From: Phycisphaerales bacterium
GTDB taxonomy: Bacteria > Planctomycetota > Phycisphaerae > Phycisphaerales > UBA1924
Assembly: GCA_038231815.1 (NCBI GenBank)
Contig: JBBRKQ010000007.1
Location: 1,683 to 65,682 of the forward strand
Length of the DNA: 64,000 nt
Direction of reading: 5' to 3'
The notes beneath the pieces are model-generated. The model worked only from the letters and a program-made list of their open reading frames with translations. It was not told the origin of the DNA and did no database searches. Both the position numbers and the translations under genes were made by a program. Positions 5,309 through 44,042 of the stretch are shown here, one piece after another. How positions within the stretch are numbered: position 1 is the stretch's first letter; every line of letters starts with the position of its first letter.

Positions 5309-5473
5309 GTTGACTCCTTTGACAACGTTGATCCCAGATTTGACCGGCGACGCTGACGGCCAACTGTGAAAGCGAATGCTGGTGCCGCCCACGCCGCATA
5401 CTCGGAGCCGAGGCCCATACGGCTCCGACCACGTGGTCGCGACGGCACAGCATTCTCTCTTCACATACACATA

Positions 5474-19171: not shown

Positions 19172-20350
19172 ATGGCGAAGCGCATTTCAAAGCAAGCGAT
19201 TCCCGCAGAAGTGGACCCAGCGGGTGAGAGGCAAGCTACGACCACTCCGCCGCAGCAACAAGGGCGGCCGAGAAAAGCTTCGACACAGGCTGCTGGCGGT
19301 GTCGGGGCTCATACTCCTCCGGTTCCCCCATCAGCCAATGCGATGGGCCGGAGCGATGCGGAGGTGCGTTTGTCCAGCGCTGCAGTGGGCCCCCCGCTGC
19401 TGCCGGATTTTAAGGCCGACAGCCCGGACACGCGGGTGTACGTGGGAGATTGCCGTGATCTGCTGCCACGGATTCCTGAAGTTCGTGACGGCAAAGTCGA
19501 TCTGATCTTTGCCGACCCACCGTTTAACTGGAACCGTGGCTACGACAAATGGGATGACCAGATGCCCGATGCGGAGTATCTGGGCTTCACCTATACGTGG
19601 ATTGATCTGTGCATTGCCTCACTGCGACCGAGTGGCTCGATGTGGATCAATATTCCGGACGATTGGGCAGCGGAGATTGTGGTGCATTGCAAGGCACGGG
19701 GACTCAAGATGGTGAACTGGTGCGTGTGGCACTATCGCTTTGGTCAGAACACCAAGAAGAAGTTCATCAGCTCAAAGGTGCACGCGCTGTACTTTGTGAA
19801 GTCTCCTTTTGAAAAGACCTGGAACCCAATGGAAGTGCTGGAGGCAACGGACCGGGCGACGACGTACTTTGACCCGCGGACGAACGACAAGGCCGACGGG
19901 ATGCCACCGGGTAAGCGTGTGCCGCTTGATGTGTGGTACGGCCCCGGGTTCAGCCGCATTCAGGGCAACAACAAGGAGCGCCGGCCGGGGCATGACAACC
20001 AGTTGCCCGAGGCGTATCTGGAGCGGGTGATTCGCGCGTGCAGCAACACGGGTGACTTGGTGATGGATCCGTTTAACGGCTCGGGTACCACTGGCACAGT
20101 CGCGCGGGCGCTGGGCCGGCGGTTTATTGGTACAGAATACTCGCAGGACCTAGCCGCGGCCGCATTTGCTCGCATCACCGAACTCGGCCCGGTCTCATCG
20201 CTCAGCGGCGAGGTGATCAGCAGTGCGATTTTTAAGCCGCGTCAGGCGAGTGCCAAGGCGATTTCAAACACGATGAAGTCGCTGGGGGCCGCCGCGGCAG
20301 CTATCGGCGAGCAGTCCGCTGAGGGACTTTTTAGCCTGGGCAGCACATGA
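19172..20350 (+). CDS. Beta-class DNA methyltransferase (probably N6-adenine), apparently an orphan
   Basis: Motif IV DLIFADPPFN comes before motif I DPFNGSGTTGTVARALGRRFIGTEYS; this order defines the beta class. There is a ~90-aa low-complexity N-terminal extension. Confidence 0.85.
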   Translation: MAKRISKQAIPAEVDPAGERQATTTPPQQQGRPRKASTQAAGGVGAHTPPVPPSANAMGRSDAEVRLSSAAVGPPLLPDFKADSPDTRVYVGDCRDLLPRIPEVRDGKVDLIFADPPFNWNRGYDKWDDQMPDAEYLGFTYTWIDLCIASLRPSGSMWINIPDDWAAEIVVHCKARGLKMVNWCVWHYRFGQNTKKKFISSKVHALYFVKSPFEKTWNPMEVLEATDRATTYFDPRTNDKADGMPPGKRVPLDVWYGPGFSRIQGNNKERRPGHDNQLPEAYLERVIRACSNTGDLVMDPFNGSGTTGTVARALGRRFIGTEYSQDLAAAAFARITELGPVSSLSGEVISSAIFKPRQASAKAISNTMKSLGAAAAAIGEQSAEGLFSLGST

Positions 20351-24841: not shown

Positions 24842-25437
24842 GTGCGAAATCTCCAATGAACCAGCAAATGCTGGGTCGGGATGATAGCCGCCTGCCGCGG
24901 CTTTGCCTAGCGATTGCCAGACTTGTGTGCGACCCAGCGGGACAAATGCATATACTTCGCACCATGCATGCACATGCTGACGCGGGGAGGATGATACCCG
25001 GCTGCCGCATGCCAGCCACAACCTGGGCCACAACTTGGGCCAAAAGTTGGGGTTGGGTTTGTTTGCGTTTAACGAGGCACCCGCCGGAGAACGACTGACG
25101 AGGCCCCAACGGGGGGCGATAGCGGAGGACAACTGCCGCGGCGAGAAGAGTTGTCGCACAACTTGGTGGAACAGGTCAAGACCTACTCGATTCACACCCA
25201 CTTGCCCGCTAACCTTGTCCCCTGCCCAAATTGGCCTTCAAAGGGGTGCGGAACCGAACAGGTTCCGATTCATCACCCGGCCGGTATTTCGCGGAAAACA
25301 GGCCGCGCCAGAAGCGGCCTGTTGCAGTTGACAGTATCGCCTCGACGTGTTCTGGTATCTTTAGTAGTTTCGGGCAGCCGCCGCACCCAAATGTGATGCC
25401 GCTGCGTTTTACAAGTCTCTTGCCAAGGAAAGTTACC

Positions 25438-27012
<1,575 letters not shown>

Positions 27013-27128: not shown

Positions 27129-27375
27129 GCGTCAGCGATTCGTAACGGATCACCGGCTGCACCGGCGATTCTGTTTTCGGACCTAAAGAACTTGTGTTTT
27201 GGCAGTCGGGTCGAAATGACCCTTCACAGAGTTTCCCTGTTTAGTGTGCGTGTCCAGCCCACCTGCGTTCCCGGCGGCGGCGTCAACGCTGATGCGGATG
27301 CTGATGCTGACCAACTTGCAGGCCAGAGCGCAGGGAACCTCCCGGTGAACGGTCATCCACTGGTGCGGATCGTCG

Positions 27376-28177
27376 GTGCTGAGCCAGACGGCGCTGGTGA
27401 CACTAGGCGGTGGGTTGACGATATCGCAGCAGCCACTGCCAGTCGCGGTTTGCCGCGGAGCGCCGGAGACGCTGAGCGTTGCCACTTCGCTCGCGGGGAG
27501 CACCTCCCGATGGCGTTGCGGGACAGTGAATCTGCTCGACGGTTGGATCATCAGCGGTGCTGGCACTGCCACGCTAATGATCATCAGTGTGACCCAAGGT
27601 GATGGGGCGGCGGGCTACAACAGCGTGATCACCAACAATTGTGACAGCGTCACGAGCAGCAACGCTGCGGTAACTGGGACGCCGGGCGTGACGATCACGA
27701 TGAATCCCAACAACGCGAGCGTGTGCCAGGGTCAGGACGCAGGCTTTCGCGTGAGCACCGCCGGCGCGGGCACGCCGCGCTACCGGTGGCGGCTCAAGAG
27801 CACGCTGATCAACGCTTAGCTGGCTCGGCAACGCTGAGCCTGACCGGCGTGACGACGGTCGATGCGGGGAGTTACGACTGCATGGTCACAGGAACCTGCG
27901 GCAGCGTGACCAGCACCACGGCAATACTGGCAGTGAAGTCCTACCGCGCATGCTCGCTGGCGGACATCGTCGGAGGCGGAAGCGACGGTAGCCGACCTGA
28001 CGGCATCGTTGATGGGAATGAAGTTGTCGCATCTGTCAACAGCTTCAGCGTTGGCGATACCACCATTGATGCTCTGCCGGGGATAGCTGGGAGCGGGGCG
28101 GATGTACTCAGCGGTGATGGCATCATCGATGGCAAGACTTCATCGCGTTCATCAACGCGTTCGCCGCGGGCTGCTAA
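27376..28177 (+). pseudogene. Decayed member of the GC-ending dockerin-like family (Ig-like modules plus a degraded dockerin-like tail)
   Basis: There is no signal peptide or start. Frame 1 has Ig-like modules that end at TAG 27817-27819 (..TPRYRWRLKSTLINA*). The homologous reading continues in another frame (LAGSATLSLTGVTTVDAGSYDCMVTGTCGS..CSLADIVGGGSDG..). A 1-nt deletion near 28135 (aag-ac-ttc instead of aag gac ttc) breaks the terminal DFIAFINAFAAGC-taa, which is still readable at 28136-28177. Confidence 0.7.
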
Positions 28178-28784
28178 GTTTCTGTTGGCGGACATGCACG
28201 GTTCTCTATTATCAAACTTTGATGTGCACAACGGAAGCCGAGCGAGACAGCGTGTGACGCGAATTGTCTGAGCGAAAGACGTGGGATAAACAACATCGCA
28301 CGCTCAACCGTCCCGGAACATGGTTGCAAAGCTTGCATCTGCGGTCAGAACGGTTTTCGATCTCCGCTCATGGCCACAAGTTGCCCGAACTGGATGTTTT
28401 TATGCCTCCTTCTGCAAGGTTTTCTGACTTTGTGGCAAGTCACAGCAGAAAGCCACCTTAACTCATCCAGGCCACGCCATGAACCACTGCCAGATTCCCA
28501 CGAGCATCCCGACTGCACGAATGACTGGTGAATCCAGTGATCCTTCCAAGAGCCGTCAGCCCTTGCCGACGCTCGTTCAGCCACCGATCGCTGTTACCAC
28601 AAACGGCACCGGATTACCGCCCCGCTTCGCTAGCATTATCGGACTGCTCTTGTCGCAAACTCGAGAGCTTGCGCAGCATCTCGTCCTTCGCGGGTCCCAA
28701 GCTGTTCGATTGGAGGTACTGCGACGCCAGATGATCATTTCTAAGCAGTTGGCAATATCACCTCTATGGGGTATGTTGTACAGC

Positions 28785-31676
28785 ATGAAGACGCACGCCA
28801 GAATGGCTTGTCCGGCTCCATCCGCCTTTCCGATCAGGATATTGGGCAGGGTGCGAAGCACTCTAAGTCTAACGCTCGGAGCGATCGCGGCGCTCGGGAC
28901 AGTGGTAGGGGTCGCTTCTGCACAGACGATTATTCCGATCGCACCGATAGCCGGAGGCTCAATTTCCCGGGCGGCGGCGGTGAACGCCACCGGCACGGCG
29001 GCGGCTGGCTACTCCGACAACGTATCCAGCGCGGACCGTGCCATCCGTTGGCAGTTTCCTGCTTCAACGACGAACATGGGACTGGTGCCGGGCGGCGTGT
29101 TTGGCTCCTACGCCGTGGCCATCGATTCCACGGGGCAGATCCTGGCCGGGTACGGCGACTCGGGCAGCTCTCGCGCGTTTCGCTGGGTCAATGGAAGTGG
29201 ATACCAGCTCCTGCCCCTCGTAACGGGCACGGGCAGCTACAGCCAAGCGTTTGGCATCAGCCAGAGCGGCGCTGTGGTGGTTGGCACCAGTGGGTTCGGC
29301 CCGGCGGCGCGTGCGTTCTATTGGATCTCAAGCACACCGGGCAGCTCGCTGAACCTTGGTGTGCTGGCGGGGCAGACGACTTCTGGGGCCGCGGCGGTCA
29401 GCGGCGACGGCACGGCGGTTGTGGGCTCGAGCGGGACGCGGGCCTTTCACTGGACCAGCGGTGGAGGCATGACCGACCTTGGCTCACTGCCCGGTCAAGT
29501 GAGGGCCTTGGGCGAAGCGGTGAACACCAACGGAACCGTCATCACCGGGCGTTACAACAACGGGAGCGAGTTCGGCTATCGTTGGACACAAGCCACCGGC
29601 ATGGTGGCCCTGCCGCAGACGCCAAACGGCTGCACAGCGCTGCGGCCACGGGCGATCAACGGCGATGGCTCGCTGATTATCGGCCAAGTGGTGGACAACG
29701 TCGCGGGCTTTACCGCCTTCGTATGGACGCCGGCCATGGGGTCCCAACTACTGGCCAATCACCTGCAGGCCCGCGGCGTGAACCTGACGGGCTGGCAGAT
29801 CAGCGATGCGACGGGCATCAGCGCCGACGGTTCGGCGATGTGCGGCAACGGGCTGTACAACGGCAGCCCCGTGGGTTGGGTGGTTCGCGGGCTGAGGTGC
29901 CCGACAAACTTTAGTGAAATCATCCCGTTCGCTGGATGGGCCTGCATCGGCAGCGACGGCACGATCGCGACTAGCTTCGTGACGTCACCTGGGGTATCGG
30001 TCCGCTGGTGGCGGAACGGGGTACTGCTCGCGAACGGACTGCAGCCCTCGGGCTCGACCATCAGCGGCGCGACGGCGACCGCGCTGCAAATCACGAACAT
30101 GCAGCTGGGGGATGCCGGGAACTATCAGGTTGGAATCAGCGATCAGGGGGCGTGTGAGACGATCACTTCGACGTACTTCTCCGGGCCCACCAGCGCGCCC
30201 AGCATCGTCTCACAACCCTCTGCGAACACCGCGTGTCAGGGTCAGAATCCGAGTTTGTTTTGTGCCGCCACCGCGGCCACGGGCACCGTGACGTACGGCT
30301 GGCAGAAGTTTGTCGGCCCGCCCACCAACGCGTTTGTAGACCTCGCCGACGGTGCCACAGGCAACGGCAGCACGTATGCCGGCACCGGCACCACGACGTT
30401 CTCGATCATCAGCGCGCAGCCCGCCGATAGCGGTACGTACCGCTGCATGCTGGGCAACAGGCACTGCTTTGGGGTGCCGCAGGCATACTCAAATGCCGTG
30501 CCCTTTACGATCACTCCTACGGCTCTTGCCGTCACTGGGCCGAGCGAGTCGTATCAGTGCACCGGCGACAACGATGCGTTCATTTCCGTGTCTGTTGTTC
30601 CGGCTACCGGCTGCACCTACAAGTGGCAGAAGTTCGGCGGGCCATTTGTCGTCCCGTATTTCGATATCAACGACGGTCCGACTGGCAACGGCGGGTTTTT
30701 CGGTCAGACCAACACGGCCACGCTGGGCGTATATTCGTTTAACCCTGGCGAGTTTAACTTCTATCGCTGCCGCGTAACCGGACCGTGCGGACAGGTTGTT
30801 TTCAGCAATCCGATCTATCTTGGCGGAGTCGGTCCTGTGGCGATTGTCACGAATCCGAGCAATGTTTCGATCTGCCCCGGCGATGACGATATCTCGTTTT
30901 CCGTCACGGCCACGCCGGGAGCCACGTTTCAGTGGCAGAAGTTCTACGGCGCGCCAACCAACGCCTGGTTCAACATCTCCAACGGACCCACAGGTAACGG
31001 CGGCAACTACGGCCAGACCAACACCGCCACCATGGGCATCTACGGCATCGGCACCGGCGACTACGGCCAGTACCGCTGTGTCGTCAGCGAGCCGTGCTTC
31101 TTCTCTACCGCCATCAGCCTGCCAGCGAGCCTTCTGCCCCCGGGCCCACCGCCCGTTACATCACAGCCAACCGGCGGCCCTGTGAACATCGGCGCTACCA
31201 AAGTTCTGACGGTTGTTGCGACGGGTGTAACGACTTACCAGTGGTGGAGGTACGTGCCCGCGTTCCCAATTTATGCACAAGTCGGCAACGGGTCGTTGCC
31301 GAGCGGCGCAATCGTGACTGGCGCGACAGGGCCCACACTGACAATCTCCAACTTCCAAGCCCAGGATGCGGGCCAGTACTACTGCAAGCTCATCAGCGAG
31401 TGTAACTTCGGCTTCTCGGCGGTTGTTACGCTGACCGTGGGCATCGCGTGCTCAATCGCGGACATCGCTGGTGGCGGGCCCAACGGCGATCAGCCCGATG
31501 GAATCCTTGACGGATCGGATTTTGTTGCGTTCATAAACTCGTTTTCCACAGGCGATGTGAATGTCGATCCGCGGGCAGACATCGTTGGCGGTGGCCCGAA
31601 CGGCTTGGACCCGGACGGGATCATCGATGGCTCCGACTTCATCGCGTTCATCAACGCATTCGCCGCGGGTTGCTGA
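28785..31676 (+). CDS. Secreted HAF-repeat protein with five Ig-like modules and a C-terminal GC-ending dockerin-like module (tandem copy 1)
   Basis: The signal peptide starts at the internal Met (MKTHARM..LTLGAIAALGTVVGVASAQ). HAF-type repeats are present (RAFRW, RAFYW, RAFHWTSGGGMTDLGSLPG). Five W-x-K/R...Y-x-C Ig-like units follow. The C-terminus is CSIADIAGGGPNGDQPDGILDGSDFVAFINSFSTGDVNVDPRADIVGGGPNGLDPDGIIDGSDFIAFINAFAAGC-stop. Confidence 0.9.
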   Translation: MKTHARMACPAPSAFPIRILGRVRSTLSLTLGAIAALGTVVGVASAQTIIPIAPIAGGSISRAAAVNATGTAAAGYSDNVSSADRAIRWQFPASTTNMGLVPGGVFGSYAVAIDSTGQILAGYGDSGSSRAFRWVNGSGYQLLPLVTGTGSYSQAFGISQSGAVVVGTSGFGPAARAFYWISSTPGSSLNLGVLAGQTTSGAAAVSGDGTAVVGSSGTRAFHWTSGGGMTDLGSLPGQVRALGEAVNTNGTVITGRYNNGSEFGYRWTQATGMVALPQTPNGCTALRPRAINGDGSLIIGQVVDNVAGFTAFVWTPAMGSQLLANHLQARGVNLTGWQISDATGISADGSAMCGNGLYNGSPVGWVVRGLRCPTNFSEIIPFAGWACIGSDGTIATSFVTSPGVSVRWWRNGVLLANGLQPSGSTISGATATALQITNMQLGDAGNYQVGISDQGACETITSTYFSGPTSAPSIVSQPSANTACQGQNPSLFCAATAATGTVTYGWQKFVGPPTNAFVDLADGATGNGSTYAGTGTTTFSIISAQPADSGTYRCMLGNRHCFGVPQAYSNAVPFTITPTALAVTGPSESYQCTGDNDAFISVSVVPATGCTYKWQKFGGPFVVPYFDINDGPTGNGGFFGQTNTATLGVYSFNPGEFNFYRCRVTGPCGQVVFSNPIYLGGVGPVAIVTNPSNVSICPGDDDISFSVTATPGATFQWQKFYGAPTNAWFNISNGPTGNGGNYGQTNTATMGIYGIGTGDYGQYRCVVSEPCFFSTAISLPASLLPPGPPPVTSQPTGGPVNIGATKVLTVVATGVTTYQWWRYVPAFPIYAQVGNGSLPSGAIVTGATGPTLTISNFQAQDAGQYYCKLISECNFGFSAVVTLTVGIACSIADIAGGGPNGDQPDGILDGSDFVAFINSFSTGDVNVDPRADIVGGGPNGLDPDGIIDGSDFIAFINAFAAGC

Positions 31677-32276
31677 GTTTGCCTTCGGCGGGCCTGCGGT
31701 GTTGTCCGCTATCAAACTCGGAAGTGCGCTGTTACGTCCAAGCGAAACAAAATGCCGCATGCGGTCTCCGAGCTGAATGCCTGGGATACACAGACCGGCA
31801 CGATCAAACCTTCTGGCGCTGCGTTTCAAGGTTGGCAAACATGGTCCGTACGGAATCCGATCGCCGCCGCGCTCACAATTGAGTTGAGGTGAAACTTTTG
31901 GTCCGCCTGCAAGGTTTTGAAACTTGGTGGCAAGTCGCAGAAGAAAGCGACTTTTACTCCGCAAGGCCACACCATGAACAACTGCCAAACCCCGATGAGC
32001 ATTCCGTGCGAGCGTCCGAAGGCTGAGGCCTGTGGCTTAGGCCCAAACCGCCAGACGACGCTGGCGGCTGGACACCCCCACTCCGTTGCACCAAATGGCA
32101 CCGGTGCGTCGCCCCATCCCGCTGAAGTTATCAGACCTTTAGCTTCCATACTGGGCTGGTTGTCTCGGCAACCTGCTCGGCAGGATTCGCAACCCATGTG
32201 TGCGACGACCGACCAATTCCCGGCCAACATCACGATACCGGTGGCAATATCTCCGCTTTGGAGTATCTTGAACACC

Positions 32277-35177
32277 ATGAAAGCTCAGCGCACCTCCGGC
32301 AACTTCACATTGAAAACTTTTATCCCGCGGCGGCTGTCCGGCGTGCGCGGGATGATCGGGCTGGTCTGCGGCGTTGCAGCGTTTGCGGCAAACCCCACGT
32401 CTGCACAAACAATTACTGTTGTGCCTGCCTTCCCCGGCGGCAGCAGCTCAGTGGTTTACGCGGTTAACTCCACTGGCACCGCCGCGGCGGGGTACTCAAA
32501 CAATGCGGGCGGTACCGACACTGGCCTTCGCTGGTTTACGCCCGGTGGCGGGTCGGGGAACATGGGGTTCCTGCCAGGTGGCGGGCTTAACTCTTACGCG
32601 CAGGCGATGGATGCATCGGGCACGGCGCTGGCGGGGTATGGCGATTCATTTGGCAACACACGCGCGTTCCGCGCGACGACGAGCTTTGGCTTTGAGGTGC
32701 TGCCGCTGGTTCCCGGCACTGGCAACTTTGCGACGGCCTCGGGCATCAGCGCTGCGGGCACGCGGGTTGTGGGCACGGGCGGCGTTGGGTCGCTCGCAAG
32801 AGCATTTCTGTGGGATCTGTCAAACCCGACGGTGAGCTTAAATCTTGGCGTAATTTCTGGACAGACCACCTCCGGCGCGAGGGCGATCAGCGGAGATGGC
32901 ACGGTGGTGGTTGGCTCCAGCGGCCCGCTGGCGTTTCGGTGGACATCGGCCGGTGGCATGCAGAGCTTGGGCACACCGCTGCCCGGGCAGGTTTGGGCCC
33001 TTGGCGAAGCGGCCAACACAAACGGATCGGTAATTACGGGGCGCTACAGCAACGGTAATGAACTGGGGTATCGCTGGACCGCGGCAACGGGCATGGTCGC
33101 GCTGCCGCAATCTCCGGGCGGTTCGGCTGCACTGCGGCCGCGGGCGGTAAACGGCGACGGCACCGTCATCATCGGCCAGGTGGTGGACAATGTCGCGGGG
33201 TTCACTGCATTCGTATGGACACCGTCGCTGGGGACGCAACTCCTGCCGGCCCACCTTTCAGCCCGCGGCGTGAACATGACCGGCTGGCAGATCACCGATG
33301 CAACGGGCATCAGTGCTGACGGCACGGCGATGTGTGGCAACGGATTTTTTAACGGCCTGCCGCGGGGCTGGGTGGTGCGTGGGCTGCCCTGTGCAGCGGT
33401 TGCAGGAATCGGCTGGGGCAACCCCACCGGTTGCCTCGGCTCGGGCGCGAGTTTTGGCTCTAACACAAGCTTTGTGGTCGGAGCGGTATACCGCTGGGCC
33501 CGCAACGGTGTGATTCTCAATGATGGAGTCCAGCCGTCGGGTTCGGTGCTGAGCGGCGCGACAACAACGCAGATGACCATGACCAACATGCAGCCGGGGG
33601 ATGCGGGCAACTACACGTTCTCGATGAGCAGCCAAGGCGCGTGTGAGTCGACCATTTCAACTTTCTTCCCCGGGCCGACGAACGCGGCCAACATTGTGGT
33701 GCAGCCAACACCAAACACGGCGTGCCAAGGGCAAAACCCGGCGCTGTTTTGTGCGGCCAACACTCCGAATGGCAGTGTGACGTATCGCTGGCAGAAGTTT
33801 GTCGGCCCCGGGCTTGGAACCTATGCGAACATCGTTGATGGCCCAAGCGGCAACGGCAGTTCATACGTGGGCACAGGCACATCCACGTTCTCGATTCTAA
33901 ACGCCCAGACGGCTGACTCCACACTCTACCGCTGCGCGGTCGGCCACGCTTTCTGTGGTCCAACACCACAGGTCTATTCGGTAGCGGTTCAGTTTACCAT
34001 CACGCCAGCAGCACCCACGGTGACTGGCCCAGGTAACTCGTATCAGTGCGGCGGTGACAACGATGCGTTTATGGGCGTGACAACGGTGCCCGCCGCGGGC
34101 TGCACGTATCGCTGGCAGAAGTACATCGGCCCGGGCATCAACTCATACGCCGATATCTTCGATGGCCCGACCGGCAACGGGGGCTTCTTCGGTCAGACCA
34201 ATAGCGCGGTTCTTGGTGTCTACAGCTTTTCCGCGGCAGAGGCGAACAATTACCGCTGCCGCGTCACGGGCCCGTGCGGCGGGGTGACGATCAGTAGTTC
34301 GGGGTACCTTGGCGTGATCCCGCCTGCGGCGATCATCACCAACCCAAGCAATGCTGCGATTTGCCCGGGAGACAACGACATCAATTTCAGCGTTACGGCG
34401 ACGCCCGGGGTGAGCTATCGGTGGCAGAAGTATGTCGGTCGGCCGGTGTTTAACTTTGTAAACATCTTTGATGGCCCCACGGGCAACGGGGGCAATTACG
34501 GGCAAACCGGAACCGCGGTGATGGGGATCTACGGCGTGTATGCCGGTGACTACACCCAGTATCGCTGCGTGGTGACAGACCCCTGCTATTTGGCTGTAGC
34601 CACCAGCGCACCGGCAACTCTGGTCACACTGAACGCACCGGTTGTAGCGACCCAGCCGGTGGGCGGAGCGGTCGGCATCGGCGGAACCAAGGTGCTGACA
34701 TTTACGCTTGTGCCCAGTGGCAACGGCAATATCACGTACCAGTGGTGGAGGTATGTTGCGGCTTTCCCGATCTACGTACCGCTGGGCAACGGCGTGCTCC
34801 CGAGCGGCGCGGTGATCAACGGTGCGCAGAGCCCAACGCTGACGATCAGCAACTTCCAGTCGCAGGATGCGGGTCAGTACTACTGCATGATCATCGGTGA
34901 CTGCAACAGCGGGCCGACTGCGGTAGCAACGCTCACTGCCGGGGTCGCATGTTCAATCGCGGATATCTCCGGCGGCGGACCCAACGGCGATCAGCCGGAT
35001 GGAATCCTGGATGGCTCGGACTTCATCGCGTTTATTAACTCATTCTCGACCGGTGATGTGAATGTTGATCCGCGGGCCGACATCGTTGGCGGTGGTCCGA
35101 ACGGCCTGGACCCGGATGGGATCATCGATGGCTCAGACTTCATCGCGTTCATTAACGCGTTCTCGGCTGGCTGCTAA
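32277..35177 (+). CDS. Secreted HAF-repeat protein with Ig-like modules and a C-terminal GC-ending dockerin-like module (tandem copy 2)
   Basis: It is collinear with 28785-31676. The signal peptide starts at MKAQRTS..GLVCGVAAFAANPTSAQ. It has the same HAF and Ig-like architecture. The C-terminus is CSIADISGGGPNGDQPDGILDGSDFIAFINSFSTGDVNVDPRADIVGGGPNGLDPDGIIDGSDFIAFINAFSAGC-stop. Confidence 0.9.
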   Translation: MKAQRTSGNFTLKTFIPRRLSGVRGMIGLVCGVAAFAANPTSAQTITVVPAFPGGSSSVVYAVNSTGTAAAGYSNNAGGTDTGLRWFTPGGGSGNMGFLPGGGLNSYAQAMDASGTALAGYGDSFGNTRAFRATTSFGFEVLPLVPGTGNFATASGISAAGTRVVGTGGVGSLARAFLWDLSNPTVSLNLGVISGQTTSGARAISGDGTVVVGSSGPLAFRWTSAGGMQSLGTPLPGQVWALGEAANTNGSVITGRYSNGNELGYRWTAATGMVALPQSPGGSAALRPRAVNGDGTVIIGQVVDNVAGFTAFVWTPSLGTQLLPAHLSARGVNMTGWQITDATGISADGTAMCGNGFFNGLPRGWVVRGLPCAAVAGIGWGNPTGCLGSGASFGSNTSFVVGAVYRWARNGVILNDGVQPSGSVLSGATTTQMTMTNMQPGDAGNYTFSMSSQGACESTISTFFPGPTNAANIVVQPTPNTACQGQNPALFCAANTPNGSVTYRWQKFVGPGLGTYANIVDGPSGNGSSYVGTGTSTFSILNAQTADSTLYRCAVGHAFCGPTPQVYSVAVQFTITPAAPTVTGPGNSYQCGGDNDAFMGVTTVPAAGCTYRWQKYIGPGINSYADIFDGPTGNGGFFGQTNSAVLGVYSFSAAEANNYRCRVTGPCGGVTISSSGYLGVIPPAAIITNPSNAAICPGDNDINFSVTATPGVSYRWQKYVGRPVFNFVNIFDGPTGNGGNYGQTGTAVMGIYGVYAGDYTQYRCVVTDPCYLAVATSAPATLVTLNAPVVATQPVGGAVGIGGTKVLTFTLVPSGNGNITYQWWRYVAAFPIYVPLGNGVLPSGAVINGAQSPTLTISNFQSQDAGQYYCMIIGDCNSGPTAVATLTAGVACSIADISGGGPNGDQPDGILDGSDFIAFINSFSTGDVNVDPRADIVGGGPNGLDPDGIIDGSDFIAFINAFSAGC

Positions 35178-35222: not shown

Positions 35223-35258
35223 AGAGCGGCTCCGCAATTGCGGAGCCGCTCTTTTTTA
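35223..35258 (+). terminator. Strong rho-independent terminator ending the tandem array
   Basis: Stem agagcggctccgc / gcggagccgctct with loop aatt, followed by TTTTTT. Confidence 0.85.
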
Positions 35259-35623
35259 TCCTGGTTACACGTCACCTTGGCGGGTAGAGTGGCGGTAGTT
35301 TGTGTTGCGAAGATTGCCCTGCCGAGAACGAAAAAACCGCCAAAGCTCTGGCATTTTCGGATTATTGCGTCGGCTACCAATTCCTAGGTCGTCACTCCAA
35401 TATATCAACCGGCTCCGCCAAGTTCGCCCGCACGCTAGCCTCATACGGACTTTGATCGATCAAATGCGGCTGGCTTTTTCGACCGAGCTAGCGAAGGAAA
35501 TGTGTCTCTGCCCAAAGCGACATGCGGACGACTTGGGCTGCTCGCCATCAGACCCAGCGGTGCCTCGCTTGTTTGCTTCTCGCTCACAATGAAGTGCGAC
35601 TATTGGTACGAAGGAGATTCCCG

Positions 35624-36952
35624 ATGCCCCTTGTCCACCCCCGCGATGCGTGCTCATTACTTGTTCTCGCGCTGGCCATCACCGGCACGGCGCTGCCCGC
35701 CCTGGCCGATCCGGTGGGTCATGACTGCGTGCTCTGGCTCAAAGCCGATGCGGGCGTGACAACCGACGGTGGCGGCCGGGTCACCGCGGCGACCGACTTT
35801 TCTGGCACTGGCAATCACGCGAGCGTTGGGGTGGGCTCTGGACCACTGCTTGTACCAGCCGCGCTTAATGGATTGCCGGTGATGCGCTTCGATGGAAACT
35901 GGCTAAACCTGGCTGGGCAGGTGCTTTCAAGCCAGCAGTTCACCATCGTCGCCGTCGTCAATGACACCCGGCGCGAGGGCTCCTTTCATGAGGTCTTCTC
36001 AAACTGGACCTTTGGTAACACCCTCTCATCAGTTTTCTTTGGCACGACGGCGTTAGATCCCGGCGGGCCAGACACCACCCGTGCGCGGCTGACCGATGAT
36101 GTGGGCGGAGCGAACCAAGGCCAGACCGGAGTAGGAGTCGTCACCAACCGCTCCTCGCACTTTATCTTCTCGGGCATCAGCCGCACAAACAACGCTGAGG
36201 TGTTCCAGAATCGAACACTGATCGCAAGTTCCGCCGCACCGATTAGTACAAGAAATCTTGCCCCGCCATACGTAATAGGCCGTCAAGGACCGATCAGTGA
36301 ATTCTGGACTGGGGACATCGCGGAAATTTTGATTTACAATACCGCTCTCTCACGGTGCGAGCTTGATACTGTGTACGACTACTTCAACGGCCGCTACGGG
36401 CTTGCCAACTGCCTGCCCGTCCTGACCTCGCAGCCGACCGACCAAATCGCTTGCCAGCGCGGCACAGTGCGGCTTGCAGTAACGGCCGCTGGTGGGCTGT
36501 GCAATAGCAACTTTACGTACCGTTGGTCAAAGGGTGGCATGCCGCTAAATGATGGGAACATGGGCACAAGCACAATCAGCGGCGCTGTAACCCGGGAGCT
36601 ACTGATCACCAATTTCTCGGGAGCGGCCGCGGGGTCATACCGCTGCGCGGTGGCAAACAGTTGCGGTACCGTCACCAGCAACCCGGCCACGATTGCGCTC
36701 GGGGCAAGCTGCTCGCTGGCGGACATCGTCGGCACAGTCAGCGGCTCACCAACAGGACCACTGCTTTGCCCGGACGGCCTGGTAGACGGAGCAGATTTTA
36801 TCGCGTTCATCAACAGCTTCAGCGTTGGGGACCCGGCAATTGATGCCCTCGCGGATGTCGCCGGTGGTGGCCCTGATGGACTCTGGCCAGATGGAATCAT
36901 CGACGGCGCTGATTTCATTGCGTTTATCAACGCCTTCTCGGCTGGCTGCTGA
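35624..36952 (+). CDS. Secreted LamG-like / Ig-like protein with a variant C-terminal GC-ending dockerin-like module
   Basis: RBS gaAGGAGattcccgATG. The signal peptide is LLVLALAITGTALPALADP. The LamG-like region runs LWLKADAGV..LNGLPVMRFDG..GDIAEILIYNTALS. An Ig-like module is present (FTYRWSKGGMPL..AAGSYRCAVANSCG). The C-terminus is CSLADIVGTVSGSPTGPLLCPDGLVDGADFIAFINSFSVGDPAIDALADVAGGGPDGLWPDGIIDGADFIAFINAFSAGC-stop. Confidence 0.9.
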   Translation: MPLVHPRDACSLLVLALAITGTALPALADPVGHDCVLWLKADAGVTTDGGGRVTAATDFSGTGNHASVGVGSGPLLVPAALNGLPVMRFDGNWLNLAGQVLSSQQFTIVAVVNDTRREGSFHEVFSNWTFGNTLSSVFFGTTALDPGGPDTTRARLTDDVGGANQGQTGVGVVTNRSSHFIFSGISRTNNAEVFQNRTLIASSAAPISTRNLAPPYVIGRQGPISEFWTGDIAEILIYNTALSRCELDTVYDYFNGRYGLANCLPVLTSQPTDQIACQRGTVRLAVTAAGGLCNSNFTYRWSKGGMPLNDGNMGTSTISGAVTRELLITNFSGAAAGSYRCAVANSCGTVTSNPATIALGASCSLADIVGTVSGSPTGPLLCPDGLVDGADFIAFINSFSVGDPAIDALADVAGGGPDGLWPDGIIDGADFIAFINAFSAGC

Positions 36953-36977: not shown

Positions 36978-38411
36978 TCATCTCTTCTCGGCAGGCGGCT
37001 TCGAGGCGGCCGCACCCTTTAGCCCGAGCGACAGCGACAAAAACTCGCCGTTGTCAAAGCTCATCCCCTCGCGGTTGTTCTCGGCAAAGCGCACGATCAC
37101 CATGTCTTCCTGAGGCAGCACGTACAGCCGCTGCTTACCCAGTCCCGCGGCCATGTAAATTTCCCACGGTGTGCCATCGGGGCGCTTTATTGCTACTGCT
37201 GCTTCACGGCTGAGTAGCTTCATGCGCAGGTTGGCGCGAATGTCATCGGCACTACCGCCGCCACCATCGGCCACGGCGCCCGCTCCGGAACCCTCACGCA
37301 GCAACCACCAAGTGAGGCCGTAGGCCGCGTTTGCTTTGCTGGGCTTAAAGCACTCCGCCAGCAGGTCAGGCCGCACAATCTGCGTGCTTGCGCCATCTGG
37401 CTTTTTCCAACTTCCGCTTTGCAGCACAAGCTGGCCAAACTTGGCCCATTGCTGGGCCGTGAGAAAGCAGCCCCCAGGCAAGTTGGGGTTGCCCGCGAGA
37501 TCTTTGCCGAAGTACCCAACGGCCAAACCGATCGGATCAAACAGCTTGGCTTTCATGTACCCCAACACAGTCTTCTGTGACTCGGGCAGCGTCTTGCTGG
37601 CTGTCAGCTTGCGCTGCAAGAACTCTCCGAAGGCCATGTAATGGCTCGGTCCGTACTCAAAGCGGGCGCCCGGCTTGGCCACGCTCTTGGCTGTTACGGC
37701 GGCCTTGAACTTGTCAGGCACCGCGTTTGCGCCACGCTGGGCATCTTTCTTTGATCCGGTGCCCGGCCCCATGATTTTCTGACCGTTCCGCCCCGGCGTC
37801 GCGCCGCCGCCCAGCGTGTCATCTGATGGGTCAAGCCCGGACGAGAGCGTGAGCAAATGGCGCACCGTGATAAGCTTCTTGTCCGGATCGGTCGCCCACT
37901 CGGTAATCGTGTCGCACACCAGTTCATCCCACCCGGTAATGAGCCCATCACCGATGGCGATCGCCGCGGTGACACCGGTAAATGACTTGGTCCCGCTGGC
38001 CAGAGGATGCGGTTTGCTTGCCGACCAACCGTTGTCATAACGCTCAAAGATGACCTTGCCGTGCTGCATCACCAGCACGGCCCGACCGGACTTACCGGCG
38101 GAGTAATCCGCCGCGGCGGCAAAATCTGCATCGCGGCCTTCCAGCGGCGATCCCTTGGGTGTGGCAGCCTCGGCAGAAAGGTTGGCAGGCGCTGGTGACC
38201 CGCGCTTCGGACTGTCTGCGAGCCCAGTACTTCCTGCCGCGAGTATGACCACAGCGCCAAGAAACGTGCGCAGAATCAAACCGCCGCACCAGCTAGGGCC
38301 AGAGGTAGGGCCAGAGGTAGGGCCAGAGGTAGGGCCAGAGGGCCGACCCGTGGGAGCATTCGCGGGCAATAGTGAACCGGGGTTGTGGCTGCTGAAGCGC
38401 AAGATTGGCAT
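36978..38411 (-). CDS. Beta-lactamase-fold serine hydrolase (class C / esterase family), membrane-anchored
   Basis: The SxxK motif is in HPLASGTKSFTGV. The N-terminus has (GPTS)n, then the TM segment LILRTFLGAVVILAAGS. Confidence 0.85.
   Translation of the reverse strand: MPILRFSSHNPGSLLPANAPTGRPSGPTSGPTSGPTSGPSWCGGLILRTFLGAVVILAAGSTGLADSPKRGSPAPANLSAEAATPKGSPLEGRDADFAAAADYSAGKSGRAVLVMQHGKVIFERYDNGWSASKPHPLASGTKSFTGVTAAIAIGDGLITGWDELVCDTITEWATDPDKKLITVRHLLTLSSGLDPSDDTLGGGATPGRNGQKIMGPGTGSKKDAQRGANAVPDKFKAAVTAKSVAKPGARFEYGPSHYMAFGEFLQRKLTASKTLPESQKTVLGYMKAKLFDPIGLAVGYFGKDLAGNPNLPGGCFLTAQQWAKFGQLVLQSGSWKKPDGASTQIVRPDLLAECFKPSKANAAYGLTWWLLREGSGAGAVADGGGGSADDIRANLRMKLLSREAAVAIKRPDGTPWEIYMAAGLGKQRLYVLPQEDMVIVRFAENNREGMSFDNGEFLSLSLGLKGAAASKPPAEKR
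38296..38343. repeat. In-frame 12-nt tandem repeat (about 4 units) encoding (GPTS)n
   Basis: The plus strand reads gggccagaggta x3, then gggccagagggc. The minus-strand translation is GPTSGPTSGPTSGPS. Confidence 0.8.
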
Positions 38412-38710: not shown

Positions 38711-39991
38711 ATGGGCCTTTACGACCGAGATTACGTGAAGACATCGAACCCTGCATCCTTGGGCAATCCGGCGGGGGGTGGCGGTGGCCGTTTTGGCCGA
38801 GGCGGGAGGTTTGGTGGCGGCGGCGGGGGTGGCAACTTCTTCCAGCGAGTACGCGAATGGTCATTTAACACCTGGCTGATTGTGGTCAACATCGCCGTGT
38901 TCATGTTCTTTGGCATTTTCTTTTACAATCAAAACAACGATGTGACCATCAGTTGGGGTCGTGAGTATTTTAAGGACGTCGCGCCGGCAGTGATCGAGCG
39001 AGGAGTGATTGTGCCCGGACCGCGCGAACGGCACCCGACGCTGGCGAATGTAACTTACAATCGAATTGTCGATCCGCAAGATGTACTCAAGACCGATTCC
39101 GGAGTCTTGGTGCTCGATCCAAAGACCGGCCAACCGATCCGGCGAACCATCGGCCGTCAACGGTTCATGACCGAACGGGTTGATCAGGCATTCGGGCACT
39201 TTTCAACCGGCAAAGGCTTCATGGAGTTTGAAGTCTGGCGTGTGCTGACTTTTCAGTTCCTGCATGCCAACATGACCCATCTTCTGTTCAACATGCTCGG
39301 GCTGTTCATGTTTGGAGGGCTAGTCGAGCAAGCGCTCGGTAAGAAGCGTTACGCGGCGTTTTATCTTGTGTGTGGTATCGCCGGCGCTTTGATGTACCTG
39401 CTCCTGAACTTCACCGGCAATCTGCTGCTGCTGACGGGCATGAAATTTCCGGGCCTGCTCTTTGACGATCTCTACACGCCGTTGGTCGGCGCTTCTGCGG
39501 GTATCTTTGGTGTGCTGCTGGCGGCGGCGTTTTTGGCACCCAACGAGATCGTTATGGTCTTCTTTGTCCTGCCGATGAAACTCAAGCACGCGGTCTACGC
39601 GTTCGTAGCCATTGCACTGGGCAGCCTGATCTGGGGAACCAACAACGCCGGCGGCGAGGCCGCCCACATCGGCGGGGCGATGGCCGGAGCGTTCTTCATT
39701 CGGCGGACGTACTTGCTACGGGACTTCTTTGATGTGCTTGGCCCCCGAAAGCCCGGGGGCAAACCAAGACCGCCGCGGGGTTACAACCCGAAGCTAACGT
39801 ACGTTGCGGGGGCAGATACGCTGGCAGGTTCTGACGCAACGGCATCGGTAGCCACGCCGACGGCGGAAGCGGCCGAAGTAGACAGAATCCTTCAGAAGCT
39901 AAGCACCGAGGGCCGCGCCGGACTGACCGAAACGGAGTTGGCCACGCTGGAATCGCACCGCGCGCGATTGCAGGCCCAGGAAAAGCGTTAG
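38711..39991 (+). CDS. Rhomboid-family intramembrane serine protease with a Gly/Arg-rich N-terminus
   Basis: FQFLHANMTHLLFNMLGLFMFG, the active-site GASAGIFGVLLAA, and HIGGAMAGAFF. Confidence 0.88.
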   Translation: MGLYDRDYVKTSNPASLGNPAGGGGGRFGRGGRFGGGGGGGNFFQRVREWSFNTWLIVVNIAVFMFFGIFFYNQNNDVTISWGREYFKDVAPAVIERGVIVPGPRERHPTLANVTYNRIVDPQDVLKTDSGVLVLDPKTGQPIRRTIGRQRFMTERVDQAFGHFSTGKGFMEFEVWRVLTFQFLHANMTHLLFNMLGLFMFGGLVEQALGKKRYAAFYLVCGIAGALMYLLLNFTGNLLLLTGMKFPGLLFDDLYTPLVGASAGIFGVLLAAAFLAPNEIVMVFFVLPMKLKHAVYAFVAIALGSLIWGTNNAGGEAAHIGGAMAGAFFIRRTYLLRDFFDVLGPRKPGGKPRPPRGYNPKLTYVAGADTLAGSDATASVATPTAEAAEVDRILQKLSTEGRAGLTETELATLESHRARLQAQEKR

Positions 39992-41516: not shown

Positions 41517-44042
41517 CTACTTACCCACGGTCCATTCCAGGATTCCGGTGGACATGCCATCCGGCAGCGTGATGTTGAGGCGAAGGGCCCTCGTTTCAAT
41601 CGCGCTGAAGCGCAGCACGCTGGGGGCATTCAACGCAATTGCGCCACCGGTGGGATCGCTCACGGGGGACCATGTCTTTCCGTCGGCTGCAAGAAATTGC
41701 AGCTCAAATGCCTTCGGCAACCGGCACTGACCAACCCCGGTGTCATCAAACCACCAGATCGAAACCTCACTGAGTTTGCGTGGGTTTGTAAAGTCGTACC
41801 GCACCCATTGTCCGGTGTCTTTTCCGTCGTTCTCTCCACCTTTCTTGGGCCAGAAGGTAAACCGCGGGATGGTGCCATCGGCGGCACTTTCGGGCACAAC
41901 GCGGTCGAACATTGCCACCAGGCCCTCACCATTGCCGGTATAGGAGGCAGTTGCCGTAATACCAGCCCGGGGCTGCGGGGCGATGACTTGTGGTGTCTCC
42001 GCCAGCCACACGTTCATGGCTTGGCCGGGCTCGCGATTGGCCCACATGAAATAGGGTCGCATCGTAATCGTTTCAGGTGAGAGTACCTGGCCGGTGCGAT
42101 AAAGGCTCTCGCTCTCGTTGTCATCACCACCGGCAGCAGCGGATACAACAGAACCCGTTGCCGTCAGCACCGGTACTCCATCAACGATTTCTCCCTCACG
42201 AATCTGCGCGGAAGCTGGGAGGATGAGGCGCTGCATGTTGACCGATGTCGCCTCGGCACCTTCCAAGGCCGTGTTGTCCGCCGCTTCCACGGCATAGACC
42301 AGCGGTCCGCGCATAATCGCAGCCCGACCGAAGCTCGCCTTGACTCGCGGGTCGGAATACACGCGGCGAATCGGCAACGGAATCTTAAAAGTGTTACTGA
42401 GAGTCTGCCCCGGGTTGACGGGGAGTCGGCGATAGCCATCTGCACCCGCGGCCGGCCCGATCGCACCCATGCGACTGGTTGCGGCCTGAGCCAGCATCGC
42501 GGAAGTCTGGCGAATGGCGAGCGTGATGCGTTTGTCGCCGGTGTTTCGGACCGAGATGGTCATCTGCCCACCGTACGGATAATCGGTCTTCTGTTCAATC
42601 TCAACGGCCTTGCCCGCTGACATAAGCGTGGCTTTACTCTCGATGAACAAGTTTACATACACCGTGTCGGAAGCCTCTCCCCCGACGGCATAAATGTTTC
42701 GGCCCAGTGAAGCGAAGAATCGAAGTACATTTGGCGGGCAGCAGGCGCAGGCGAACCAATCGCTGCGAGCGTGGCCGCCGCGGCTGGCCATAGGGTTCAC
42801 GTAAAAGAACTTGGATCCATCGAGCGACACCCCGGCGAGCACAGCGTTGTAGAGCGTTTTTTCAAACTGCTCCATGTACCTGGCATCAGGTTCCAGAATA
42901 AACATCCGCTGGGCCCACTGGCATAGTGCGATCGAGGCGCACGTTTCCTGGTACGCGGAAGTTACCGGGATATCAAACGGGACAGTGAAGCCTTCGTTGT
43001 GCCCGCTCGGGCCGATGCCCCCGGTCACGAAGATTCGCCGCTGGGTGATGTCGTGCCACAAGGCCTGCAGCGCGGGCGTGTACTTTGGCTCGCCACGGGC
43101 GGCTAGATCTGTCATTGCGGCATACATGTAGCCAGCCCGCACTGCGTGACCTGCGGCCTCAGTCTGCTCGGCGGCTGGCTTGTGGTCCTGGGCGTAATCG
43201 CCCCAAGGTGCAATCGTCTGGCCATCCAGCGTGCGATGAGGGCGGCCACGCATCTCGATAAATGCCGATGCGAGGTTGCGGTACTTAAACTGGCTCGTGG
43301 CATCGGCAAGACGCACAAGGGCGAGTTCAATTTCCTGATGGCCCGAGGGCGTGCTGAGTTTGCCGGGGGCGTAAACGTCTTCCAGAAGATCCGCGGCCTT
43401 GATCGCCACATCGAGCAGCGTGCGTTTGCCTGTGCATTCAAAGTGGGCCACACCCGCCTCAATCAGGTGGCCAAGACAGTAGGTTTCGTGATCGTTGATG
43501 TCGTTGGAGAATCGTTTGTCAACACCAACCTTCAGCGTGTAATAGGTGTTGATGTAACCATCGGGGTACTGCGCCGCGGCAACTTTGGCGATGAGGGCAT
43601 CAAGGTCTTTATCAAGTTGGCCTTTGACGATCGGGTCAGACTCCGTCGCAATGAGGTACGCCCAGCCTTCCATCATTTTGTAGACATCTGAATCGTTGAA
43701 GAGCAAGCCTTGAAACTCTGCTGGCTGGTCACCCGCAACCGCGGGCTCGTTCTTGATTTTCTTGGCAGCGTTTTCAAAGTTGGCGATGCGGCCGGTGCTG
43801 TCACACTGGTGGCGATTGGCCGCGAGGGTGCCGGCTCGCACGGCGGCAATTCGCGGCCCCCAGAAACTGCCGCCAATTGAGACCGCGTTCACAGCTGCGG
43901 GGGTGATGCGAGGGAGGGAGTAGGCAGGCGGTGCAAGCTGCACGATATTCGCTACTGGCGCGGGTGCATCTGCTGGCTGGGTTGCCAAGCATGCCGCGGC
44001 CAGCAGAGGAAACGCGAGTTGCAGCGAACTGAAGTTGTACAT
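41517..44042 (-). CDS. Glycoside hydrolase family 127 (beta-L-arabinofuranosidase-like, DUF1680) with a C-terminal discoidin (F5/8 type C)-like domain
   Basis: The signal peptide is MYNFSSLQLAFPLLAAACLA. GH127-like stretches are DSDVYKMMEGWAYLI, HETYCLGHLIEAGVAHF, GHQEIELALVRL and CCPPNVLRF. The C-terminus has QWVRYDFTNPRKLSEVSIWWFDD. Confidence 0.88.
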   Translation of the reverse strand: MYNFSSLQLAFPLLAAACLATQPADAPAPVANIVQLAPPAYSLPRITPAAVNAVSIGGSFWGPRIAAVRAGTLAANRHQCDSTGRIANFENAAKKIKNEPAVAGDQPAEFQGLLFNDSDVYKMMEGWAYLIATESDPIVKGQLDKDLDALIAKVAAAQYPDGYINTYYTLKVGVDKRFSNDINDHETYCLGHLIEAGVAHFECTGKRTLLDVAIKAADLLEDVYAPGKLSTPSGHQEIELALVRLADATSQFKYRNLASAFIEMRGRPHRTLDGQTIAPWGDYAQDHKPAAEQTEAAGHAVRAGYMYAAMTDLAARGEPKYTPALQALWHDITQRRIFVTGGIGPSGHNEGFTVPFDIPVTSAYQETCASIALCQWAQRMFILEPDARYMEQFEKTLYNAVLAGVSLDGSKFFYVNPMASRGGHARSDWFACACCPPNVLRFFASLGRNIYAVGGEASDTVYVNLFIESKATLMSAGKAVEIEQKTDYPYGGQMTISVRNTGDKRITLAIRQTSAMLAQAATSRMGAIGPAAGADGYRRLPVNPGQTLSNTFKIPLPIRRVYSDPRVKASFGRAAIMRGPLVYAVEAADNTALEGAEATSVNMQRLILPASAQIREGEIVDGVPVLTATGSVVSAAAGGDDNESESLYRTGQVLSPETITMRPYFMWANREPGQAMNVWLAETPQVIAPQPRAGITATASYTGNGEGLVAMFDRVVPESAADGTIPRFTFWPKKGGENDGKDTGQWVRYDFTNPRKLSEVSIWWFDDTGVGQCRLPKAFELQFLAADGKTWSPVSDPTGGAIALNAPSVLRFSAIETRALRLNITLPDGMSTGILEWTVGK

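Follow-up and report, generated by a model that had tools for sequence, protein, structure and literature searches.

Selection and junction exchange at the GC-type dockerin-like tail of two tandem paralogs from a freshwater planctomycete

Why should two neighbouring genes whose products differ at more than a third of their residues end in almost the same 75 amino acids (aa)? The question is raised by a pair of paralogs, here called A and B, in a 64-kb stretch of DNA (the window) from a freshwater member of the Phycisphaerales (Planctomycetota). Gene A (28785–31676, forward strand, 963 aa) is an entry in the list of open reading frames (ORFs) and has matches to Pfam immunoglobulin (Ig) models and to the NCBIfam models TIGR02913 and NF041540; gene B (32277–35177, forward strand, 966 aa) is likewise listed as an ORF, and is supported by Pfam and NCBIfam matches and by protein alignment. 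In both, a long passenger is followed by a C-terminal GC-type module, the tail (31449–31673 in A and 34950–35174 in B, forward strand). The original prediction took A and B for collinear tandem paralogs whose near-invariant tail marks a constrained interaction surface.

The collinearity was confirmed by global protein alignment, which gave the same order of parts from end to end: signal peptide, HAF region, five Ig-like units and the 75-aa module. A codon-aware comparison of the modules (31449–31673 against 34950–35174, 75 aligned codons; Nei-Gojobori estimates with bootstrap 95% intervals) also reproduced the hand count from which the prediction started: 45 codons are identical, 27 differ only synonymously and three carry replacements (A/S, V/I and A/S). 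In the module the proportion of synonymous differences (pS) was 0.545 (interval 0.40–0.70) and that of nonsynonymous differences (pN) 0.018, with a ratio of nonsynonymous to synonymous divergence (omega, or dN/dS) of 0.018 (0–0.045), whereas in the passenger pS was 0.66 (0.62–0.71), pN 0.25 and omega 0.19 (0.14–0.24). Synonymous and nonsynonymous counts differ between module and passenger (Fisher p = 4e-7), and neutrality in the module is rejected (p about 1e-15), with 30 synonymous differences against three nonsynonymous changes, all of them conservative. We conclude that the module is under strong purifying selection, as predicted, with an omega of about 0.02 that is nowhere near 1 and lies roughly ten times below that of the passenger. 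The passengers are indeed the more divergent part at the protein level, A and B sharing 0.63 of their residues there and 0.96 in the module. The prediction further held that many third positions in the module are saturated, and this did not stand: four-fold degenerate sites differ in 44% of cases, compared with 59% in the passenger and 64% expected at saturation. Recent gene conversion as the source of the similarity is ruled out, in line with the prediction, by a nucleotide identity of 85% and by the 30 synonymous differences.

A pseudogene upstream of A, psi (27298–28177, forward strand), is an internal control for relaxed selection. Its decayed Ig-like units and GC-type module are spread over three reading frames, with tblastn matches to the intact paralogs (as queries) in frame 2 (27298–27790), frame 1 (27768–28136) and frame 3 (28133–28174); the frame is broken at least twice, near 27790 and near 28135, and conserved module residues have been lost (DF->EV, AD->PG). 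The pseudogene ends in DFIAFINAFAAGC with a stop codon at 28175–28177, and its final 42 nt show only three mismatches to A.

Comparison with orthologs changed the picture. About 32 full-length homologs were found, every one in metagenome-assembled genomes (MAGs) of Phycisphaerales. The passenger tree has the form ((A,P0002),(P0006,(B,(P0003,P0005)))), in which P0002 is the ortholog of A and P0003 the nearest relative of B. Since this topology places the A/B split before the separation from the genomes of P0002, P0003, P0005 and P0006, the duplication is old, as the prediction had it. The modules follow a different course. Passenger and module identities are 0.63 and 0.96 for A and B, 0.63 and 0.88 for P0002 and P0006, and 0.71 and 0.77 for B and P0003, but 0.87 and 0.36 for A and its own ortholog P0002. 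Between the latter two, synonymous divergence (dS) is 0.37 and nonsynonymous divergence (dN) 0.07 in the passenger, against a dS of about 1.9 and a dN of 0.66 in the module. Their nucleotide identity is 80–91% up to about 31445–31468, where the first Cys and the ADI motif are encoded; from there it drops to background (~45%) through the module and beyond. Because synonymous sites are saturated within the A/P0002 module, this pattern reflects recombination at the junction rather than fast adaptive change or vertical descent. We conclude that the history of the module is decoupled from that of the passenger and that, between A and its ortholog, the tail has been exchanged as a cassette at the passenger/module junction. 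The selection result for A and B stands, but the module was not inherited vertically with its passenger in A and P0002.

This exchange took one of three forms: replacement of the tail in the other lineage, arrival here of a tail from a third, B-like donor, or transfer of the passenger onto a resident tail. An assembly chimera is an unlikely source of the A/P0002 mosaic, given that only about 11 nt are shared at the junction, that an independent Logan assembly contains an identical A protein (P0001) and that type-2 modules occur on four contigs. Contig L017, which shares its metagenome sample with the P0002 contig, carries a tandem pair of the same HAF–Ig–GC kind, a P0006-type gene followed by an A-type gene. 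The upstream gene of this pair has a module of the other lineage's variant, or flavour; the A-like gene is truncated short of the module, and P0002, a close relative of that gene, bears the same flavour as the upstream gene. Another locus (L004) was rejected as a syntenic equivalent of the A–B pair, its upstream gene having an unrelated passenger.

Across 12 loci, with contig or locus as a proxy for genome, mean module identity was 0.74 for the 40 pairs that share a locus and 0.40 for the 521 pairs on different loci. On one of them (L001), Lectin_C, Kelch and HAF–Ig passengers have a common module flavour, and a flavour common to unrelated passengers was also found on L004 and L015 (with a non-HAF neighbour) and on L016 (two genes). 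The other three intact modules of the window are 71–77% identical to those of A and B. We conclude that module flavour tracks the genome and not the passenger.

GC-module genes often stand three or four in a row on other loci (L007, L009, L011–L013 and L016), with possible tandem HAF–Ig–GC paralogs on L012 (3–2669 and 2539–5430) and L013 (7373–10441 and 10630–13803). Neighbouring GC genes on those loci have modules about 60–90% identical, and the 96% between A and B is thus unusually high.

Could one old duplication, with both modules inherited vertically and held near-invariant by purifying selection only, account for that figure? The 27 synonymous against three nonsynonymous codon changes fit such a history, as does the overlap between the pS intervals of module and passenger. 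The first half-repeat of the module fits it too: its synonymous divergence between A and B equals that of the passenger (13/23), so that this half is as old as the passenger, with only two conservative replacements. The A–B module dS of 0.97 also exceeds the A–P0002 passenger dS of 0.37, which means that the modules of A and B had parted before A separated from P0002, and the swap may lie in the other lineage. The second half-repeat behaves differently. A change-point scan placed a fall in synonymous divergence from 0.52 to 0.26 at 31554 (permutation p = 0.036), and in a fixed-block control 13 of 23 conserved codons differ between A and B in the first half and 9 of 32 in the second. In nine other paralog pairs the corresponding values were 0.48 and 0.51. 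The drop is absent from those pairs and is hence specific to A and B, which excludes codon bias as its cause. We conclude that an old partial conversion probably gave the last ~100 nt (~40 codons) of the two modules a more recent common origin. Purely vertical descent is further opposed by the other functional modules of the same genome, which differ by 23–29%, by the module dN of 0.18 between B and P0003 at a passenger divergence similar to that of A and B, which means that the surface is not intrinsically invariant, and by the junction recombination demonstrated in this gene family. We regard it as unlikely, although it deserves to be kept in mind. For the predicted constrained surface, this means that the purifying selection is real, whereas invariance is not a property of the module as such: other copies in the window are 71–77% identical and A and P0002 only 36%.

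What kind of domain is the tail? The C-terminal 67–80 aa of A, of B and of a third gene at 35522 match NF041540 (dockerin_GC, cutoff 29 bits) over the full length of the profile, scoring 59.2, 60.2 and 57.2 bits. Homologs in Phycisphaerales MAGs carry the name 'GC-type dockerin domain-anchored protein'. NF041540 is an annotation model, a known family without published function, partner or structure, and a literature search for 'GC-type dockerin' found no papers. The 'anchoring' in the name is likewise an annotation label, and a surface role is suggested by positional analogy with sorting domains in HAF homologs. The module of A consists of a Cys, two loop-helix half-repeats (ADI-GGGPNGxxP-DGIxDGSDFxAFINxF) and a terminal Gly-Cys, and that of B is 96% identical to it in amino acids and 85% in nucleotides. 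In all five intact modules of the window, AGC stands directly before the stop codon. The Gly-Cys is conserved, and most flavours have it as their last two residues, while some others end in GCP, GCAF or VCGF. An AlphaFold2 (AF2) model of the module (predicted local distance difference test score, pLDDT, 92.4) has helices at residues 22–34 and 61–72 with a loop before each. A profile built from 20 diverse modules matches solved dockerins (6kge/6kgc, 3–4e-5; 2y3n, 6e-5; 2ccl, 0.006; 1ohz, 0.011) and also EF-hand pairs such as 2jnx (4e-7). A search with the module profile against a database of 5.8 billion proteins returned mostly short fragments and was uninformative on passengers. We conclude that the tail is a member of NF041540 that is dockerin-like in design and not a classical type I dockerin; membership of the classical family was rejected on negative Pfam and Foldseek results, the similarity being at profile level only.

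The module is internally symmetric. Half-repeats are 70–91% identical within one module (70–83% in A and B), whereas corresponding halves of different flavours share 13–52%. Synonymous sites between the two halves of A are saturated, and since the halves are nonetheless alike, selection keeps a twofold-symmetric surface. Such a surface is known from dockerins with a dual binding mode. Short flavours of the module hold the canonical D-x-N-x-D-G-x-I-D-x-x-D loop (ADFNCDGGIDGDDI); the 12-residue motif used as a test for a Ca2+ loop, D-x-[ND]-x-D-G-x-[IV]-[DN]-x-x-D, is interrupted in the window flavour, which reads ADI-A-GGGPNGDQP-DGILDGSDF. The modules of A and B have two bracketing Cys only. 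In some modules a third Cys lies within the first loop (...PLLCPDG, ...ANCGDG, ...VTCGDG; genes 35522–36952 and 11143–12897 of the window and 9695–12823 on L001), and the odd count could mean an intermolecular disulfide.

Among the closest known systems are the type I dockerins of cellulosomes (PF00404), which resemble the GC module in size (~60–75 aa), in their place at the C-terminus of diverse secreted passengers, in an internal twofold symmetry with two F-hand loop-helix repeats in tandem, at the level of profile similarity, and in recognition flavours that differ between species. Cohesin–dockerin pairs are well known to be species-specific. The GC module differs in its negative PF00404 and Foldseek results, in its loop insertion and in its bracketing Cys...Gly-Cys. 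Its host is a diderm planctomycete whose passengers are of binding type (propeller, Ig, lectin, Kelch) and not glycoside hydrolases, and for the GC module no cohesin was found among 20 other window proteins. With NF041540 the likeness extends to the family level, the tails of A, B and the gene at 35522 matching without difference and sharing the two repeats and the Gly-Cys end. The nearest published idea is the 'planctosome' hypothesis, which places cohesin and dockerin modules of freshwater Phycisphaerae in non-cellulosomal surface assemblies and is built on canonical cohesin and dockerin domains joined to peptidases (Andrei et al. 2019, PMC6461901). It concerns the same bacterial class and habitat type, whereas that model does not include the GC-type module, HAF–Ig passengers, genome-specific flavours or cassette exchange.

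We think it probable, with a good deal of room for doubt, that A and B are old tandem duplicates whose tail serves as a genome-specific address tag. Both proteins are taken to be exported by the Sec pathway and consist of a propeller head, a five-Ig stalk and the 75-aa dockerin-like tail, the head presumably being presented at the far end of the stalk. The tail would dock many different passengers, probably in a Ca2+-dependent manner, onto one genome-specific surface partner, perhaps a receptor of the cohesin kind or a machine dedicated to sorting, and the first and last Cys of the tail would probably be stapled by a disulfide. Under such an arrangement all copies in a genome would have to hold the local flavour; a passenger that arrives from elsewhere or by duplication would be functional only on the resident tail. 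The close match between A and B would then combine constraint, shared ancestry and, probably, the old homogenisation of the last ~100 nt, and the tandem duplication itself may stem from unequal crossing-over between tails. The account builds on the observed selection on the tail, its internal symmetry, its genome flavour and the exchange at the junction.

Several points weigh against this account. Pfam PF00404 gave no match to three window modules, even at E <= 10, and Foldseek of the module model against the PDB gave none at E <= 0.001, the sensitivity of that search being low for a small, loop-rich domain. The window flavour carries an insertion of 8–9 residues (GGGPNGxxP) in each loop, and Ca2+ binding there is only putative. 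Neither a cohesin nor another partner was found among the 20 other window proteins. The flavour comparison takes contig or locus as a stand-in for a genome, and the homogenisation signal is statistically modest (p = 0.036; 9/32 versus 13/23 codons). Finally, the other same-genome modules are 71–77% identical to those of A and B, so that a local partner would have to tolerate variation; if there is one partner, this variation of about 25% means that constraint alone fails to explain the 96% identity of A and B.

The main functional rival would make the tail a C-terminal export or sorting signal for an outer-membrane translocation or attachment machine, its terminal Cys perhaps being processed or covalently attached; we take its analogues to be the C-terminal domains of the type IX secretion system (T9SS) and PEP-CTERM/exosortase. 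In HAF homologs of other phyla, the C-terminal place of the tail is taken, by their Pfam annotation, by an autotransporter barrel, a PEP-CTERM domain, a T9SS tail or a classical dockerin, and by that positional analogy a sorting or anchoring role of one kind or the other is supported. The conserved and mostly terminal Gly-Cys, the T9SS, PEP-CTERM or autotransporter domains that take the place of the tail in HAF homologs elsewhere, the many unrelated passengers to which the module is joined and the lack of a cohesin among the 20 other window proteins all speak for such a signal, and a genome-specific flavour would be equally expected for a pair of signal and machine. Yet the module is folded, twofold-symmetric and EF-hand/dockerin-like, which is how binding modules are typically built. 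It lacks transmembrane helices and known sorting motifs, and the endings GCP, GCAF and VCGF of some flavours speak against a strict C-terminal chemistry. On balance we give a sorting signal only a modest chance of being the better description. Least credible of all is concerted evolution, by which gene conversion between adjacent repeats would have made the modules alike without any special constraint: modules do group by genome and not by passenger orthology, and the last ~100 nt of A and B are lower in synonymous divergence, but psi shows what unconstrained decay looks like (frameshifts and lost conserved residues), nucleotide identity is 85% and not about 100%, and the 30 synonymous against three conservative nonsynonymous changes (p about 1e-15), with an omega of 0.018, largely refute it.

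The passengers to which the address tag would be attached consist of two recognizable regions. In A, the signal peptide (28785–28922) is followed by the HAF region (28923–29900), five Ig-like units (~29922–31448), the module and the stop codon (31674–31676); in B, the corresponding parts lie at 32277–32405, ~32406–33392, ~33408–34949 and, after the module, 35175–35177. Both signal peptides are long, of the basic-hydrophobic-AxA type, and end in ASA or TSA before a nearly invariant QTI. A matches the HAF repeat model TIGR02913 with 38 bits (cutoff 22.65); B gave no match to it at E <= 0.01, and B is still 70–82% identical to A across the core repeats. The region comprises seven repeat units of ~45 aa each, and the structure model of this region in A is all-beta (pLDDT 93.5; predicted template modelling score, pTM, 0.91). 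Its best PDB neighbours in Foldseek are seven-bladed propellers of the WD40/TolB type (template modelling score, TM, 0.55–0.6), with no close relative among them; the HAF region is thus modelled as a closed seven-bladed beta-propeller head. The resemblance of A to known HAF proteins lies in the TIGR02913 match and the seven ~45-aa units, and is reflected in the Joint Genome Institute (JGI) name 'probable HAF family extracellular repeat protein'. A and B differ from those proteins in that their repeats are modelled as a closed propeller on a five-Ig stalk, and in that most HAF proteins, among the matches listed, end in an autotransporter, PEP-CTERM or T9SS domain and not in a GC module. A literature search for 'HAF repeat' turned up a single paper that mentions it, and only in passing. 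The Ig domains match Pfam (PF13927 Ig_3 and related models) with 86.8 bits in A and 62.2 bits in B (cutoff 30), and across 26 homologs the five units have invariant W408, W506, W614, W717 and W820 and the Y-x-C core.

The starts of both genes require comment. In-frame ATGs lie about 100 codons 5′ of the likely starts, at 28479 and 31974, with the frame open in both genes, and the first 11 codons from these upstream ATGs are alike (MNHCQIPTSIP and MNNCQTPMSIP). NCBI places the start of A at 28479 (P0121, 1065 aa), and the B protein is also in an NCBI MAG record with an earlier start codon (P0004, 993 aa). These longer ORFs are unlikely, since the signal peptide and the AxA-QTI site directly follow the ATGs at 28785 and 32277, where the homologs start. 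We conclude that the extension 5′ of the signal peptide is probably untranslated.

How far does the duplication extend? The upstream region of A (28178–28784, forward strand) is homologous to the spacer between A and B (31677–32276, forward strand), which is its duplicate copy: the DNA 3′ of psi and the DNA 3′ of A are 59% identical overall, over a background of ~35%. This homology begins immediately 3′ of the preceding stop codon, where 28178 pairs with 31677 in the alignment, and the duplicated unit, spacer and gene together, is consequently about 3.5 kb (28178–31676 and 31677–35177). A and B are tandem duplicates, as predicted, but the unit is this longer one and not the 2.9 kb of the genes alone. 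The sequence relationships suggest a possible origin of the duplication in unequal crossing-over between GC modules of neighbouring genes. Two pairs of noncoding blocks within the upstream regions are conserved at 70–82% identity despite saturated synonymous sites in the passenger (28412–28453 with 31907–31948, and 28750–28789 with 32242–32281), and each block occurs exactly twice in the window. A sigma-70-like site, TTGGCA-17-TATGTT (28749–28777), stops 7 nt short of the ATG at 28785, suggesting that a near-leaderless transcript could start from the proximal block. A known RNA element was rejected for these blocks: Rfam gave no match to them, the only sub-threshold signal, isrD, lying elsewhere. 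Neither block was found 5′ of the A-like gene on L017. In the terminator scan, a strong intrinsic-terminator-like hairpin was found 3′ of B (35223–35252, forward strand; a 13-bp stem with 10 G-C pairs, followed by a T run), and nothing comparable was found between A and B.

The array in which A and B lie runs in the order psi, A, B and a fourth gene (35522–36952, forward strand) that combines a concanavalin-like lectin domain (Laminin_G_3), one Ig domain and a GC module. Pfam and module scans of the window added a GC-module protein with an Ig-containing passenger (11143–12897, forward strand), and there is a further GC-module protein (4181–5470, reverse strand) whose passenger has no Pfam match; the window thus holds five intact GC modules and one pseudogene copy. 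A and B are also found together on a 69-kb NCBI MAG contig. Directly 5′ of the array lies an ORF resembling the ATP synthase alpha subunit (25231–27012, forward strand), and further neighbours are RNase III, a radical-SAM MiaB-like protein and a succinate dehydrogenase flavoprotein. Flanked by such housekeeping genes, the array does not lie in an obvious mobile island. Shortly 3′ of it are genes for a rhomboid-family intramembrane protease (38711–39991, forward strand) and a beta-lactamase-fold serine hydrolase (36978–38411, reverse strand). The window also encodes a GH127 beta-L-arabinofuranosidase with a C-terminal F5/8 type C (discoidin) domain (41517–44042, reverse strand), a secreted-type glycosidase without a GC module, and an N6/N4 DNA methylase (19172–20350, forward strand; PF01555, E = 2e-44).

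Beyond the selection on the tail, the comparative result, that flavour tracks the genome and that tails are exchanged at a precise junction, is the added and more interesting part. No part of these proteins is as conserved as the tail inside one genome, and none diverges as much between genomes. For annotation, the lesson is that dN/dS from a paralog pair alone can mislead about the history of a module; here the ortholog comparison changed the interpretation. With six copies in a 64-kb window, the GC-type dockerin is abundant in the Phycisphaerales. Tentatively, and with less confidence than we have in the account of A and B themselves, we propose that GC-type modules form a genome-specific addressing system in this order, in which one twofold-symmetric flavour would be carried by dozens of unrelated surface passengers and would co-evolve with a receptor, while junction recombination would move passengers between lineages, or duplicate them by crossover in the tail, with the resident tail always kept. 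If so, the tail would be both a compatibility tag and a recombination hotspot, and the system would be a planctomycete counterpart of the cohesin–dockerin code, serving adhesins and binding proteins rather than enzymes. The prediction would then be that every genome has genes for a matching receptor or sorting machine, with a binding surface that changes in step with the flavour of the tail, and this co-variation would offer a practical handle for finding the partner across MAGs.

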